Below, piece after piece: positions 1,928-49,137 of a DNA stretch of 64,000 nt. How positions within the stretch are numbered: the first letter of the stretch is position 1; every line of letters starts with the position of its first letter. The notes beneath the pieces were generated by a model that worked only from the letters and a program-made list of their open reading frames with translations, was not told where the DNA came from and ran no database searches. Source of the DNA: Octopus vulgaris (Eukaryota). The stretch covers positions 96,286,001-96,350,000 of the forward strand of contig OX597820.1 of the NCBI GenBank assembly GCA_951406725.2. The letters are read 5' to 3'. Both the position numbers and the translations under genes were made by a program.

Positions 1928-2550
1928 CATTCGTAACAGTGTAGGTACAAATGCACCGGAGTCTTTAGTCATCTGTCAAGTCACAAGGACCTCAGACAGA
2001 CAGATAATACTTTCTTTTAGACGTGTGCTGTGCCCAATAAGGCTGCTTTTTGCAAGACACCAATCTTGCTTGGGATTTCCAGTTGCCTCAAGAAGCCTTG
2101 AAGTTTCAATGGGATTGAGCCCAATGTTCCGATTACCACTGGTATCACTTTTACGTTACCATCTCGCATTCCATATAGTCTTATCATTTCCACTTTCAGT
2201 TCGGAGTACTTGGTGATTTTTTTTAAACTCTTTACTCACAACATTCACGTCATTTGGTTTGGCTACAACAATGAGCTGACAGTATTTGTTTCTCTTATTC
2301 AATATGACAATATCCGGCCGACGGTGTTCGATTACACAATCCGTCTGAAAATCATATTCCCAGAGTATTGTTATTTTTCTATCCTCCTGCATAACTTTAC
2401 TTCATACATTCTCATACCAGTTCTCTATTACTTCATATTGGTATTTACAGTATAAGAGCCAATGAAGATACACACACACTTAATCGTGGCGGCGCTTGTA
2501 TTCTTTTTGTGCAAGGCTCTCACATCCACTTTCCAAGTGGGTCACATTTT
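1928..2550 (-). mobile_element. R4/Dong-type non-LTR retrotransposon 3' fragment (REL endonuclease), degenerate
   Basis: Minus strand encodes THLESGCESLAQKEYKRRHD* and ILWEYDFQTDCVIEHRRPDIVILNK (RHD and RPD motifs); 3' end abuts (TAA)n. Confidence 0.85.
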
Positions 2551-2702
2551 CCAAAAAATAGAAATACTTCAAAATCCGAAACACGTTCAGTTCTGAAAAT
2601 TTTTAATAAGTGTTCAGCTAGATCATCTACATTTTAAATCATGTTTTTTCTGTTTGAGTGAATACAGTTACATTTTCTGTATATTAATTCGTGGGCATGG
2701 TA

Positions 2703-3027
2703 AGGCAGCGAGTTGGAAGAATCATTAGCATGCCAACTAAAATGCTTAGCGGTATTTTGCTCGTAAGCGGTATTTCGCCCGTAAAGCGGTATTCCGCCCG
2801 TAAAGCGGTATTCCACCCGTAAAGCGGTGTTTCTCCCGTAAAGCGGTAATCCGCCCGTAAAGCTATATTCCACCCGTCTTTACGTTCTGAATTCAATTTC
2901 TGAGTTCAGCTTTGCCTTCCATGCTTTCGAGGTCGATAAAATAAGTACCACTTGAAGACTGGAGTCGATGTAATCGACCTACTTCTACCCCAAAAATTGC
3001 TGGCCAAGTGCCAAAATTTAAAATCAA
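2703..3027 (+). mobile_element. tRNA-derived SINE (family A) with internal 19-bp minisatellite
   Basis: Head GGCAGCGAGTTGGAAGAATCATTAGC and body match the reverse complement of 31846-32073; about 7 copies of AAAGCGGTATTCCGCCCGT at 2748-2877. Confidence 0.8.
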
Positions 3028-3411
3028 TTCGTATCCAAGCTGAATTTGACGATACGCTATCGAATGACGAGCTGCGTATTATATATTCCCATTATATCTT
3101 CTTTCCTGTCATATGAACTCACACATAAATACTTGACAGTAGAATGCCTGAAATGATTTGATTAAAATATTCCCTGAGAGCAGTGATCCCCAATGTGGAG
3201 CATGTTCGCTAATATACACACTAGCTTAGCTATAGAAATAACACATTTGATAATGTGGTCCTAAATAGCCCCAAAACGACAGGATTGACGCAGCTAGAAT
3301 ATATAACTTCGATGATAGGTCTGACAAGTCAGGTCTCAGCTAGGGCTAAAAAACCACTGAGACAAAAGAAAGATAATCTTAAGATACATACACACACACA
3401 CACACACTCAC

Positions 3412-3491
<80 letters not shown>

Positions 3492-4263
3492 TATGTGTGT
3501 GTGTGTTATTTCATAATAGAGTACCATTAAGTTCTGATACATTTAGAAACGTCATGAAGATACAAAAAATGTATACTATTTAGAAACTTTTCATAACTTA
3601 CGTTGCCGAAGGTAAGATGATTAAAGAGATCTATCACATTTATGTTTTTTTTTTCTTACTGTTTGTCTAACAGAATTCAGATGATGTCGCTTTGTAAATT
3701 GGTTTGCGGAAAAAGAAAATATTTTCGTATTACACAATGTAAACATAGTAAGATAGGGGAAAGAGAAAAAGCAATAACAAATATGAGTATTTATGTTAAT
3801 AATAATTCTTTCCCAAAAGCACAATTCCATGAAGTAAACATAATTTCTGCATATGTTCCTACTCTCATGACAACAAAAACTTACGAAATATGAAAACAAC
3901 GTAACATATTGAAACTAAGGACTTTCGGGTAGGAAAATATTATAGAACCAGTGTTATTATACAATTATGACAAGTACGTATGCTTGTATGTGTGTATGTA
4001 TGTAAATATGTATGTATGTATGTATGTAGGTATCTATCTATCTGTCTATCTACCGATCGATCGATCGATCTATTTGTCTATCTACATGTCTAACTTTTTT
4101 ATCATTATATATATATATATATATAAATTAGGGTATCTGAGAGATACCACCATGCTAAAATAGCAGTCAAAACCCTAACCCTAAAAGCACCTTAAATGTC
4201 CATATCACACCAGGAGAGAAGACATAGAGACAAAATAAACTAGCAAAAATATTTTACTGGATA

Positions 4264-9884: not shown

Positions 9885-9957
<73 letters not shown>

Positions 9958-9997
9958 ATATACAATTATATATGTATATACATTTATTTATATATAT

Positions 9998-10406
9998 ATA
10001 ATGTAAAGTATAGAAGCCATCTTATCATGGCTAACCACATAAGGGAGGGGCTGTTACTGTAGCTTTATAGCCCCAAGAGATCGTTGTCTCTAGCTGGCTT
10101 TAGACACCATATCAGTGCCCTTGAAGTATTTGCAAAGGGGGGCCATCCCTTCCTCGCAATCCTGAGTGATACGCTCGGACTAGTTTCGGGATATTTGTCC
10201 CTTGTCAACGGGCGGTAACCACCAGGATGCGACGAAAGTGAAGGCTTCCTTGCAAATATATCAGTTTTTCTAGTGGCGTCAGCCACTGATTTCGAAAAAC
10301 TGACAGTAAGCATAATTAAATCTCAGAATGTGATTGAAACAGTAATCGCTCGATAATGTAAAGTATAGAAGCCATCTTATCATGGCTAACCACATAGGGG
10401 AGGGGC
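9998..10406 (-). mobile_element. 355-bp-period element with 54-bp terminal direct repeats carrying a hammerhead; retrozyme-like
   Basis: 9998-10051 repeated at 10353-10406 with one mismatch; interior has several long complementary segments; left end in TA-rich tract. Confidence 0.7.
10172..10214 (-). ncRNA. Type I hammerhead ribozyme with U3-A8 core covariation
   Basis: CGCCCG-UUGACAA-GGGA CAAAUA UCCC-GAAA-C UA G-U-C-CGAGCG; palindromic ACUAGU stem III, GUC triplet, stem I 5/6 paired. Confidence 0.7.
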
Positions 10407-10710
10407 AATGGCCCAGTGGTTAGGGCAGCGGACTCGCGGTCGTAGGGTCGCGGTTTCGATTCCCAGACCGGGCGTTGTGAGTGTTTATTGAGCGAAAACA
10501 CCTAAAGCTCCACGAAGCTCAGGCAGGGGGTGGTGGCGATCCCTGCTGTACTCTTTTGCCACAACTTTCTCTCACTCTTTCTTCTGTTGGCCTGCTCGCT
10601 TAGCCAGCGGGGTGGCGTCATTTAAAGGCTAAAACAATGCAAAGTGCATTGTGACCAGCGATGTATAACAACATCTGATAGCCTGGTCGGTCAAGGTGAT
10701 CACGGTGATA
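10399..10710 (+). mobile_element. tRNA-derived SINE (family C)
   Basis: A box TGGCCCAGTGG, B box GTTTCGATTCC, tail GGTGATCACGGTGA; near-identical to 48501-48813. Confidence 0.85.
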
Positions 10711-10791
10711 TGTATATATATATAATATATATACATTTAGATATGTATATACATATATTTATATAGATATAATATGTATGTATATATATAA

Positions 10792-10876
<85 letters not shown>

Positions 10877-13469: not shown

Positions 13470-15030
13470 ATTCTAATTTTAACATGCAACCTACAAGAAA
13501 CACTCAAAATCTTTCTAGTTTGAACTTCCATAAGGCAAAATGGAAACAAATTGAGAAAGAGATCCTCAAATAAAACTGGCCTAGACGTCTCTCCTCGCCG
13601 GACGTTGACATGAAACTTCAACAATTCATATGTGTATTGCTAGCTATAATCCTACAAATGTGTTCCGGATAGAAAGGTCACTATACACAAGAACAAAATC
13701 CCCAGGGAGAGGAAAATTCTTATGACGGCGTATAAAAATTTCAAATCGCCAAAACAAAAAAAAATGGAAGCAGCGAAAAATTCCGCCTGAAAATACAACC
13801 GCTGAAGATTGAAAAAATCTGCAACCTTCCCTTGAAAAAGAAAGAAGCCTGGGCTATAGACAATATAAAATCTAACCCTAGAACCTTCTACAAGTTTGCC
13901 AATGCAACAGCCTCAGTGCACTGCAGGATAGGGCCACTCTTCGAAAAAGATGACTCACTCCCAGGAAACACGAGGATAAGTGAAATACTAAATGAGCAAT
14001 TCAAAAGTGTTTTCACTTCACCCCTAGGACACTTGGAAGTCAGCAATCCGACTCTTTCACCACTGTAGATATATAAAAAAAAAAGAGGCAGTGTTGATTG
14101 ATTGCATTAATATAAAAGACGGTGTAATAAGGGATATAGATGAAATGAACTACTGTTCATAGTGACCCTCACAGATATTCCCTCACCCTCACAGAGAGAC
14201 ACGATCACAAGTTATGCAGATGATACAAAATCTCACAGGTGATACAGAACCCTGAAGACGCTATGCACCCGTCATGTGAGTTGGATGAAATATACAAGTG
14301 GATTGAGAAGAATAGCATGAAATTTAGGCAGCTGACCGGATGGATTCTTAGAACTTATACAAAGAGAGATCAGGAAACCCTGATGGTCCTCTGGAGGACA
14401 TTTGTCCTAAGCTCCTTTGACTAGCTATGGTAATCAGTATGGTCACTAACCAATGTAAAATTAATTTCAGAACTTCAGGCAATCCAACGAAGCTATACGA
14501 AAAATTTAACCTCTATGCAACATACTAGCAAGTGGGAAAAACTCAAGAGATTGAGACTTTATTCCCTAGAGCGTAGGTGAGAAATATATGCTATAATATA
14601 CATCTGGAAGATCCTAGAGGGACTTGTCCCAAACTTTGTCATCGAGAGTTACACTAATGCTAGAACAGGGCGCCACTGCATAGTGCCAAAGACTCCAATT
14701 TTGCCGTCAAGATATAGGAAAAGATGTTGCAGCAGCCTGGGCTTTAAAGGCCCACAGCTCTTCAATATACTCCCGAAGAACCTGAAAGACCTACATGGGG
14801 TGATGTAAATGTCTTCAAAATGAAACTAGAACTCTTACTGTCAAGTGTCTCAGATAAACAAACTTCAGATAAACAAAGTGCAGATTGGGGGCAGCGGCAT
14901 CAAACTTCTACATGCATCACACGTCAATTTTAAAAAAAAATAGTTAAGTAAAATTATGTAGCAACACTAAATGGCGGTACCCCAGCATAGCCACAGCTCA
15001 TGAGCTGAAACCAGACCAGATCAAATCATA
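13470..15030 (+). mobile_element. CR1-group LINE ORF2 remnant with internal deletions
   Basis: IKSNPRTFYKFA, SEILNEQFKSVFTS, RT motif TSYADDTK (~14207), GWILRT, LRLYSLERR*, IWKILEGLVPN; frameshifted. Confidence 0.8.
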
Positions 15031-16166: not shown

Positions 16167-17394
<1,228 letters not shown>

Positions 17395-20184: not shown

Positions 20185-21715
20185 ATGCTAATACTGTTCC
20201 CAAGGACCCAAAGATAATTGGCACTATCTTCATTTACTTCATTTTCCACAGCTGGGCCATTTCGTACTTACGAGGGTTATATCTATCTATCTTTTCGCCT
20301 TCTTCCTCCACTATTCGTGGGTCAAAGGGACATGCAACATCAACTATATAGCATATGTGGTGCACCTTGTCCACCACTACTAAGTTCGGTCTGTTGCGCT
20401 CTAGCACCTGATCTGTTTGGAATGAGAACTCCCAGAGGATTTTGCTAGTCCCCGACTCCACCGCACTCGGCGGTTTATGCTCATGTCACGTCTGCCTCTT
20501 TCTTGCCCCCACTTTCCGTACAGTTTCCAATGGAGCGTTTTCGCTACCTGGTTGTATCGCCACAACTTGTAATGGTTTAAGGCAGGTCTATAGCATTCGT
20601 TCGTGATATGGGAAATAGTTACATCCACTCTATTGCAGATGCGGCACAGTGGAGACACTCGCTTATTCCTAAGGTTGACCCTGCAGTTCGTGGCCAAAGC
20701 TTAGTATTGTGCTTCCAGTATAGTGCTCTCGGCTTCCTTTTTCAAGTTCCTTTCAGCAGCCAATCCTACCTAATTTTTCCAGGGAATTCTGTTGTGGATA
20801 AATGGAACTGATTGTGTAGTCTTTTGTTGTGTAATTCTTCTTCACGTCCATTTTGTACTTCTTCCTTTGTTTTCACTTCTTTCTCTGTTCTCAATACTTC
20901 CTCGTTCCTGACTGTCACTAGCAAGGCTTCCTTACTTTGGGCTCGGTATTTCATTAAGCTCGTGCTTGATACGCACGCAGTCTTCCATACTTATCAGTCC
21001 CCTTCCTCCACTTGCTCTCTTCATGTATAGGCGATTAGTGTCTGCTCGTGGATGGTGGGCTCCATACATCGTTAGGAGCTTTCTTGACTTCCTGTCCATC
21101 TCCTTTATCTCCTCTTCTGTCCACTTCAGGATTCCAGCGCCATACCGAACTACTGTGACTGCCCGCGAGTTTATTGCCGAAATTATGTTTCTGGCATTCA
21201 GCTTTGGAACCAATATTTTTCCAACTCGCCGCAGGTACTGTCATTTTGTCTTTTCCTTCATGTCGTGGTGTTTGATCCCATCTGACTCAAGTATTCTCAG
21301 GTATTTATAGCTGAATTGAAGTTGCATTGCCTTCATAATTTCACCACTTCGCAACCCTATACCTTCTGTCCTGGCAAGCTTTCCTCGTCTCATCAGTATC
21401 GTAGCAAATTTTGAGAATCCAAACTCCATCTTAATATCATCGGAGAAAATCCGCACAAACTGGACAAGGCTGTTCAGTGGTCCTCGGGGTTTTTTTGAAT
21501 AGCTTCAAGCTGTCCATGAATAGCAAGTGGTTTAGTTTTTCCCTTACCTCTTCCAGATCATACCCCAACTTTGTTTTCTGTATTTCACTCAAGGGAGATC
21601 ATTCCCAGCACGAATATCAGTGGGGACACATTGTCCCTTTGGAAGATTCTCTCTTGATTTTCACCTCTCCTAGTACTGCTGTCAATTCTGTTCTCCAGCA
21701 TTTCATGCTATTCCA
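20185..21715 (-). mobile_element. R4/Dong-type non-LTR retrotransposon, 5'-truncated and degenerate (RT C-terminus, CCHC, REL)
   Basis: KLNHLLFMDSLKL (RT), KMEFGFSK, RLYMKRASGGRGL, CRICNRVDVTISHITNEC (CCHC), KILWEFSFQTD..RPNLVVVD; abuts (TAA)n. Confidence 0.9.
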
Positions 21716-21731
21716 TTAATATTATTATTAA

Positions 21732-21771
<40 letters not shown>

Positions 21772-21778
21772 GTTACTA

Positions 21779-21852
<74 letters not shown>

Positions 21853-21855
<3 letters not shown>

Positions 21856-22309
21856 TAGTTTTATTTTTATAGCGTGCTTTCACTTCACTACCGAGCGCAG
21901 CTCTGTGTGCCTTGGGTATGTGCTGTGATTTGTTGTGATGCTCTGATGGTTATTGTATGGAAAGTGTTCTGCGTAGGATGTGTGCAGTGCCTAGTAGTGC
22001 AATTTTCTGTATGTTATATGTGTTTGTAAGTCCTGGTGTTTTTGTTATGTATTTGTCTGAATATTTTTTTATCATGCCTAATGCACCTACTATGATAGGA
22101 ATTGTTTCTGTTTTCAGGTTCCACATTCTAGTTACCTCTATTTCCAGGTCTTTGTATTTTGAGAGTTTCTCCATTTCTTTTAGAGACACGTTGTCATCTG
22201 CCGGTATTGATACATCAATTAGAAAGCATTTTTTTTCTTCATGATCTCTGACAACTATATCTGGTCTGTTGGCCTTAATTTCTCTATCTGTGTGAGAAAT
22301 TAAGGCCAA
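21853..22309 (-). mobile_element. R4/Dong-type LINE 3' fragment with uninterrupted REL-domain C-terminus
   Basis: ORF 21950-22309: NRPDIVVRD...LIDVSIP...EKLSKYKDL...PIIVGALG; flanked by (TAA)n on both sides. Confidence 0.9.
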
Positions 22310-48392: not shown

Positions 48393-48813
<421 letters not shown>

Positions 48814-49137
48814 ATATATATATATAATTGACAAGGAAGAGGAGAGTGGAGATTTATTTACATCAAAACTTTTTTTATTAAAATGTTTTGTACAGCATAT
48901 ATAACACTGGTTTACATATGTTTCGACTGCATGGAATATTTGCAGTTCTGAATAGGAAAATGGAACTACCCAGCAAGTGAAACTTACAAATACCAGTATC
49001 TCTTTTAAGCTTGAGTACTATTTAATTGGATCGTTGTGGATAGCCGACATCTATGCCTATTTGTGATGTAATATGGTACCCGCTAGTATAATGTGTCCCT
49101 TTAATACTATATATATGTACATACACACATACATACA

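Follow-up and report, generated by a model that had tools for sequence, protein, structure and literature searches.

A U3-A8 hammerhead in a probable non-LTR retrozyme of Octopus vulgaris and the core variants of its dispersed family

The hammerhead motif and the insertion that carries it

The window analyzed here is a stretch of 64,000 nucleotides from the Octopus vulgaris genome (contig OX597820.1, positions 96,286,001 to 96,350,000 of the forward strand). Positions 9998-10406 of the window (409 bp) are occupied by an element that encodes no protein and carries a single hammerhead motif on the minus strand. The features at this locus, assigned from the sequence unless another basis is given, are as follows.

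9998..10405, minus: insertion of the retrozyme type, in which a 355-nt unit runs head to tail for about 1.15 turns, with a single hammerhead only
9998..10051, minus: 3' copy of a 54-bp redundancy (direct repeat)
10353..10406, minus: 5' copy of this redundancy, at the truncated start of the next unit turn (direct repeat)
10214-10172, minus: type I hammerhead motif with a U3-A8 core (sequence, column counts, covariation)
10214-10209, minus: 5' arm of stem I, 6 nt
10208-10202, minus: core strand UUGACAA (U3 at 10208, C7 at 10204, A8 at 10203)
10201-10198/10191-10188, minus: stem II, 4 bp
10197-10192, minus: loop 2, 6 nt
10187-10184, minus: GAAA
10184-10179, minus: palindrome ACUAGU, formed by the 2 bp of stem III and the UA loop that they enclose
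10180-10178, minus: GUC triplet (C17 at 10178)
between 10178 and 10177, minus: predicted cut (from its position in the motif)
10177-10172, minus: 3' arm of stem I, fully paired apart from a C-A mismatch at 10211/10175
10171, minus: U at position 1.7 (predicted folds)
10156..10230, minus: extended stem I with an internal loop beside the 6-bp core helix (predicted folds)
10403..10712, plus: separate dispersed repeat outside the unit, abutting the 5' end of the insertion head to head

The terminal base 10406 is unmatched in other copies, which align from query position 2. The repeat at 10403-10712, which we take from its look to be SINE-like, has a second copy in the window at 48503-48815 (94% identical) and matches in about 30 of the fetched retrozyme loci; it lies within 150 nt of a retrozyme element in only 4 other loci, and ARAGORN called no tRNA on it. 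Elsewhere, the window contains frames that we take to be similar to Tc1/mariner transposase (16339-17132) and broken frames that presumably resemble pieces of LINE reverse transcriptase (13736-14808 and 20218-22309).

All parts of a hammerhead with the U3-A8 core UUGACAA, which an earlier note on this DNA had proposed, can be placed on the minus strand at 10214-10172, and the motif is thus real. It is of type I, with three helices around the core, an open helix I and covarying stems, and of the dimer type, with a helix III of 1-2 bp and a palindromic loop; the palindromic 11-mer is predicted to form a self-duplex (-6.2 kcal/mol) and no hairpin alone. The canonical combination of CUGANGA, GAAA and UH is not found in the window copy, where C3 and G8 are replaced by U3 and A8; these two bases can pair (U-A), a property that extends to the family in part only. 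The core is that of the U3-A8 variant published previously (PMC3088659, PMC4209133; these and the other papers cited below are drawn on through the portions available to us). With a 4-bp helix II, no extra base between positions 9 and 10.1 and a 2-bp helix III, the motif does not belong to the min-HHRs, the minimal hammerheads of PLEs, and its C-A mismatch in stem I is common to the subfamily (all 42 aligned pieces have the A).

The expectation that searches requiring CUGANGA would miss such motifs was borne out for Rfam: nothing in the window reached the gathering score, and the 17 matches at E <= 10 over positions 9900-10800 include no hammerhead family. The linear fold of the 355-nt unit has a z-score of -5.8 against shuffles, and the circular fold (-115.3 kcal/mol, z = -5.5 with 60 shuffles, 62% paired) corresponds to the highly self-paired circle predicted for retrozymes. 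Given these fold z-scores, the 1783 first-look candidates for the 409-bp stretch in the genome and the near-empty control (0-1 matches to the reversed pattern across descriptor searches), a chance origin of the motif is excluded.

The element had also been described as terminally redundant and 355 bp long. The 54-bp direct repeats, 98% identical and spaced by 355, agree with this description; the redundancy, however, is that of one unit plus 54 nt, with no LTR involved. An LTR reading of the repeat was discarded because other copies consist of unit pieces joined head to tail and begin at various points along the unit. The 3' end of the insertion is at the commoner of the two 3' end sites of the family, beyond which AT-rich/(TA)n DNA follows. 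No PLE frame (RT and GIY-YIG between pLTRs) lies beside the window copy, and because this copy holds only one hammerhead, it could not release a monomer by itself.

The repeat family and the bases at positions 3 and 8

In the 2.8-Gb genome (227 contigs), near-full-length matches to the 409-bp stretch at 91-96% identity are present among the 40 scored of the 1783 candidates. The number of unit copies is put at about 2,000-4,000. The copies are mostly dispersed insertions of 0.6-2 units, and dimers and trimers with a period of 352-360 occur elsewhere in the genome. We mapped the ends of 94 distinct insertions (loci L001-L108, the first 30 chosen by length). The 3' ends cluster at two fixed sites about 45 nt apart, at unit positions 50-59 (49 of 94) and 90-104 (33 of 94), away from the predicted cut at unit position 229, with 2 of the 94 ends in its 225 bin and none in the 230-270 bins; the 5' ends are scattered along the unit. 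An inverted piece is present in 35 of the 94 insertions, and 54 are longer than one unit, a share inflated by the enrichment of the sample for long copies. Of 115 insertions, 45 have a (TA)5 run no more than 25 nt from one end, and duplications of at least 8 nt were found in 20 of the other 70, both counts being given with no null computed.

The family thus combines the features of non-LTR retrozymes (a non-coding unit within 150-450 bp, a type I hammerhead, tandem copies and no LTR-flanked interior) with the marks of PLE mobilization (5' truncation, partial tandems, an inverted 5' piece, an optional tail and AT/(TA)n targets). An ORF with RT and GIY-YIG between pLTRs, which would define an autonomous PLE, is found at neither the window copy nor the family copies: the family loci, fetched with 1.5-kb flanks, contain no PLE frame and no common internal region adjoining the element. 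In its insertion habits, the element works like a passenger of PLEs but is no PLE. Two candidates for a longer internal region, suggested by 1.4-kb spacings, were rejected, L070 being a large inverted duplication and L159 a tandem duplication with part of a LINE in it. Three loci (L061, L087, L096) have about 1 kb of flank in common (96-97%) beside a truncated copy, which is either carried within another repeat or part of a duplication.

Contigs from four sequencing runs (X1, X2 and X9, guessed to be RNA, and X18, of unknown type) include pieces with G8 and with A8, and no C3 is listed among them. In contigs of run X9, whose RNA nature is likewise a guess, depth is 2000-3000 over most of the unit and about 50 or less over 10205-10309; a contig breaks off loosely at 10204, which may reflect an abundant variant missing the hammerhead's 5' half.

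The subfamily of the window copy, counted in a fixed 24-nt context, includes 269 copies with C7, of which 68 have A8, all together with U3; the first 100 of the C7 copies listed are all U3, with 76 G8 and 24 A8. Another 23 copies have a different base at position 7 (12 U7-A8, 7 U7-G8 and 4 others). Overall, A8 is present in 81 of 292 copies, and the remaining ~72% are nearly all U3-G8, with U17 nearly throughout (C17 changed to U); the one copy that combines C3 with the stem II of this subfamily is C3-A8. In the sister subfamily (74% identity), 32 of 33 pieces are U3-G8, and the first 100 listed of its 351 pattern matches comprise 70 U3-G8, 29 U3-A8 and 1 C3-G8. Locus L128 of this subfamily, considered as a possible C3-G8 ancestor, was rejected as a lone revertant among these U3-G8 pieces.

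Genome-wide counts were obtained with a descriptor that has 3 free stem bases and the loop CAANNA, so that motifs with other loops are missed and some members of unrelated old families are taken in. They gave 1623 matches for U3-A8, 795 for U3-G8 (2418 minus 1623), 266 for C3-G8 and 158 for C3 with A, C or U at position 8 (97 A8 among the first 100 listed); the U3 counts cover A8 and G8, and purines at position 3 and U3 with a pyrimidine at 8 fall outside. By this single loop-2 descriptor, U3 exceeds C3-G8 about 9:1 (2418 vs 266), and U3-A8 makes up 1623 of the ~2840 matches summed over four descriptor searches. The C3-G8 matches (L109-L138) are mostly diverged motifs of other families with a poorly paired stem II, and one of these 30 belongs to this superfamily. 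As to whether the family consensus is U3-A8, a point on which the reading in the earlier note depended, the answer is yes for the genome as a whole, where U3-A8 dominates over C3-G8, and no for the own subfamily of the window copy, where A8 is the minority.

Of 17 pairs of tandem neighbors, 16 have the same base at position 8 (9 A8/A8, 7 G8/G8), and the remaining pair includes a decayed core. Given this agreement and the roughly tenfold excess of C7-A8 (68) over U7-G8 (7), the mirror product of CpG decay, A8 appears to be inherited from templates rather than generated by such decay.

Phylogenetic trees were built with positions 3, 7, 8 and 17 masked, from the 175 of 197 segments with full homology; for rooting, a 64-row subsample was used with family D as a distant outgroup (53% identity). 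U3-A8 rows are at the root of the latter tree, and U3-A8 is probably ancestral; an initial assignment of U3-G8 as the ancestral state was dropped after wider sampling and rooting. U3-G8 rows form two groups split by well-supported A8 branches, and a single U3-G8 clade, a group named after the first tree had been seen, is rejected (AU p 1.3e-11); the starred branches force at least 3 changes at position 8. Judging from these trees, U3-G8 arose at least twice. One A8 clade is nested among G8 rows on a long branch, possibly as a reversal or a mosaic, and the window copy is placed in a small clade that is all A8 and C17.

A third core state forms a clade of its own. Eight C3-A8 rows from 6 loci (L310, L318, L322, L328, L333, L335; also G000:C4:80857199-80857944) group with support 100/99 inside a U3-A8 clade. 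Their median pairwise difference is 0.005, compared with 0.03-0.08 in the other named groups, which makes this subfamily, by sequence divergence, the youngest sampled. An identical 26-mer occurs in 18 of the first 100 listed of the 158 C3 rows, at 12 sites, one of which is a trimer with a period of 360. Since no C3-G8 parent was found for this superfamily, the double change from C3-G8 to U3-A8 is not seen here. A pyrimidine is kept at position 3 and a purine at position 8, but masters with U-A, U-G and C-A have all been amplified.

At least three further families of hammerhead repeats have U3 cores, nearly all of them A8, and palindromic loops of their own.

Family D: L173, L194, L195, L235
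Family E: L172, L183, L190
Family F: L212, L220, L224, L242

Family D is a 360-bp tandem unit that is homologous to the retrozyme unit outside the hammerhead (E down to 7e-14), and family F also contains many C3-A8 rows.

For the covariation analysis, 219 U3 segments were reduced to 56 representatives, of which 25 were dropped by eye (truncated, shifted or unrelated), and the remaining 31 were aligned with the window copy; the search patterns fixed the core and loop-2 letters and left stem pairing free. In this alignment, 94.7% of 416 cells are paired (24-49% in slid controls), and 99 cells are changed on both sides compared with 28.9 in shuffles (0 of 500 as high). Changes on both sides affect 9 of the 13 pairs, including all 6 of stem I, which is no excess by this count alone (7.3 in shuffles, 39 of 500 as high). 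Of the 197 superfamily segments, 184 have a palindromic loop 3, which takes five sequences (TA, TATA, CG, TGCA and CGCG), and the related families have the palindromic loops AT and ATCGAT. Stems, GAAAC, GUH and the palindrome are kept across lineages that are about 50% diverged. Allowing for rows that were hand-picked and are related by descent, this is good evidence that a dimer-type hammerhead fold is conserved; the covarying stems and palindromic loop 3 point to selection on the fold. As U-A, U-G and C-A masters were all amplified, this selection is likely stronger than any that favors rapid catalysis through the 3-8 pair. That cleavage itself is selected for we infer, and cutting may be only loosely required for spread.

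A candidate mover, the proposed mechanism and competing explanations

A search of the genome for GIY-YIG gave 6136 first-look candidates, and many of the 150 that were scored lie in identical 781-codon frames. One such frame combines RT (E 4.8e-6, below the cut-off of Pfam) with a C-terminal GIY-YIG domain and a Cx4Cx2C linker of the kind described for Neptune PLEs (PMC8557442). This autonomous PLE, with its many intact frames, appears to be young.

Young autonomous PLE: L275, L280, L299-L304; e.g., L300:1212-3509, plus, with a hammerhead near L300:4383

In 23 of 23 distinct copies, drawn from 38 loci, its 3' hammerhead has the U3-A8 core UUGAUAA. Stem I there consists of A and U only, the loop is palindromic and the flanks are (TA)n, and an optional tail is present in 5 of 16 matched PLE ends. 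The retrozyme unit matches none of 30 GIY-YIG loci taken from the 6136 candidates (best E 0.11) and shows no similarity to the terminal region of one intact PLE (p = 0.83 for the 3'-end alignment). The retrozyme and the PLE therefore have the U3-A8 core and insertion habits in common and no detectable sequence, and a partnership between the two is something that we infer only.

The reading that we favor, with a probability of about 0.7, is that the window copy is a non-coding, 355-nt non-LTR retrozyme, likely dead on arrival, with an inherited U3-A8 hammerhead, predicted to be slow and to cut as a dimer, and that it was likely copied by the enzyme of a PLE. This reading builds on the dispersed family, the lack of an adjacent RT gene, the partial tandems, the two 3' ends, the scattered 5' ends, the inverted 5' pieces, the (TA)n/AT-rich targets, the covarying stems and the palindromic loop 3. 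Tandem master copies would be transcribed, two hammerheads in the transcript would pair through the palindrome and cut slowly as a dimer, and the monomers would be ligated into circles. A PLE protein with RT and GIY-YIG would then prime at AT-rich DNA and start at one of two sites inside the RNA, away from the ribozyme cut, copying more or less than one turn of the unit.

The dimer mechanism, with pairing through the palindrome, is described in PMC4209133 and PMC6155905, and the general acid is identified as the 2'-OH of G8 in PMC6155905. By extension from G8, A8 would retain its ribose 2'-OH as the general acid, and the 3-8 pair would position this group. U-G and protonated C-A wobbles have similar geometries, a likeness that could leave the U-G and C-A cores with residual activity.

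The strongest of the alternatives, although we consider it unlikely, is that cleavage is dispensable or provided in trans: subfamilies with weak cores would ride the PLE machinery uncut, or a U3-A8 sibling, held to them by base pairing at the common palindrome and stem I, would cut them with its own core strand. For weak-core subfamilies, this may overlap with the retrozyme-PLE reading itself. The insertion ends ignore the cut site, for each group with U3-G8 or C3-A8 there is a U3-A8 relative whose loop 3 is identical, and the U3-G8 group of the own subfamily also changed C17 to U, all of which fits such an explanation. So do the reports, as far as their available text goes, that an Anolis PLE continues to insert in vitro when its hammerhead is inactivated by mutation (PMC11167929) and that Naiad PLEs spread without canonical hammerheads (PMC8557442). 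Nevertheless, the retention and covariation of stems, GAAAC, GUH and palindrome at ~50% divergence require some selection, the common loops can be explained by descent alone, and pairing in trans would compete with folding in cis. A bolder version, in which the 3-8 pair is nearly optional and the U3-G8 and C3-A8 elements are cheaters, cut in mixed dimers by their U3-A8 siblings or left uncut, strikes us as doubtful; if true, it would represent ribozyme complementation between subfamilies of a mobile element, with the cheaters keeping the palindrome, stem I and the cut site.

Similarly doubtful is the idea of strict compensation, in which the U3-A8 double change is held by selection for full cleavage and the non-pairing cores are decayed copies. 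U3-A8 is the majority state, lies at the root and is fixed in the PLE sample; the U3-A8 clade nested among U3-G8 rows may be a return to Watson-Crick pairing, and U3-A8 is reported to be active in vitro (PMC3088659, citing another paper). However, U3-G8 masters were amplified at least twice, and the C3-A8 clade, with its tandem trimers, is the youngest sampled and arose inside a U3-A8 clade. The non-pairing cores are not mere decay, because decay cannot yield clades of near-identical dispersed copies. Of the compensated pair envisaged in the earlier note, what stands is that U3-A8 is inherited and amplified; the pair itself drifts, given the 795 U3-G8 matches of at least two origins and the young C3-A8 subfamily.

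Quite improbable, in our view, is that the unit is no independent retrozyme and represents 5'-truncated remains of a longer autonomous PLE, whose terminal repeat (pLTR) it would be. The insertion marks are the same as those of PLEs, many solo PLE hammerheads come from truncated copies (PMC4209133), and a preprint derives retrozymes from pLTRs (10.64898/2026.07.22.740005). Against this stand the copies in which one unit continues directly into the next across the junction, head to tail (the dimers and trimers with the period noted above), the lack of a common interior or PLE frame within the fetched 1.5-kb flanks and the failure of all 30 GIY-YIG loci to match the unit. CpG decay, by which the U3-A8 core of the window copy would have come from a U3-C7-G8 core after insertion and would mean nothing functionally, is very improbable and, for this copy, largely refuted: C7-G8 is indeed a CpG, U3-G8 is the majority in the own subfamily and a few A8 rows lie inside G8 clades, but C7-A8 far outnumbers U7-G8, tandem copies agree at position 8 and the window copy belongs to an all-A8, C17 clade.

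Significance and comparison with known systems

The U3-A8 swap itself is already published (PMC3088659, PMC4209133), and the novelty here is one of scale and of an allelic series. The value of the finding lies in the family rather than in the window copy. Hammerheads with U3 are invisible to CUGANGA descriptors, and censuses of hammerheads and retrozymes can undercount badly as a result. The amplified U3-A8, U3-G8 and C3-A8 subfamilies, on near-identical backbones, constitute a natural allelic series that makes it testable whether hammerhead cleavage is needed for the mobilization of PLEs and retrozymes, a need described as unclear in PMC8557442 and as dispensable in vitro in PMC11167929. The papers available to us contain no account of natural cores with U3-G8 or C3-A8 that have been amplified, although Lunse et al. 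2017 and the supplements of PMC4209133, PMC7229834 and PMC3088659 may include such variants, and no report of this family for octopus was found.

Several rare natural examples of C3-G8 covarying to U3-A8 have been described (Perreault et al. 2011, PMC3088659); here, by contrast, U3-A8 predominates across a whole genome and has given way in places to cores outside Watson-Crick pairing. In a mutational scan of a different type of hammerhead, only a G-C swap gave rescue at positions 3-8 (PMC9901934); this result counts against the favored reading, as do the C-A mismatch fixed in stem I of the subfamily and the lack of sequence similarity between the unit and the PLE. A close match in the core is the hammerhead of Cercyon PLEs in Schistosoma mansoni, with ~1,300 U3-A8 matches (Cervera and de la Pena 2014, PMC4209133): both have the core swap, are missed by the canonical descriptor, are linked to PLEs and are of the dimer type. 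The Cercyon motifs are minimal, with a helix II of 7-8 bp, a helix I of 4-5 bp and an extra base after A9, whereas the window hammerhead has canonical helix sizes; the wobble and mismatch cores found here have no mention in the available portion of the Cercyon account.

The PLE marks recorded in the available text of two papers (PMC8557442, PMC11167929) are partial tandems, an inverted 5' copy, an optional 30-40 bp tail, an internal RT start and an AT-rich target. Like the EN+ PLEs, namely PAc of Anolis (PMC11167929) and Neptune and Naiad (PMC8557442), the octopus family has partial tandems, inverted 5' pieces, an optional tail, AT-rich/(TA)n targets and a hammerhead near the end, and the tail in those elements comes from two internal RT starts. 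Unlike them, the window element encodes no protein, and it has no detectable homology to the autonomous PLE found in this genome. PLEs have been proposed as movers of non-LTR retrozymes (PMC7229834; preprint 10.64898/2026.07.22.740005), and the insertion marks of the octopus family, in particular the two-site 3' tail and the inverted 5' pieces, are sequence evidence that supports such mobilization of animal retrozymes.

The overall organization is that of metazoan non-LTR retrozymes, with units of 350-390 bp in mussel and 330/350 bp in axolotl (Cervera and de la Pena 2020, PMC7229834). Common to both are a non-coding unit of ~350 nt, tandem copies, a self-paired predicted circle, a type I hammerhead with a 6-bp helix I, a 4-bp helix II and a short palindromic helix III, and the longer target duplications. 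What sets the octopus family, known here from genomic copies, apart from the metazoan retrozymes is the U3-A8, U3-G8 and C3-A8 cores, of which the available part of that account makes no mention, together with its mostly dispersed insertions, inverted pieces and two-site 3' end.
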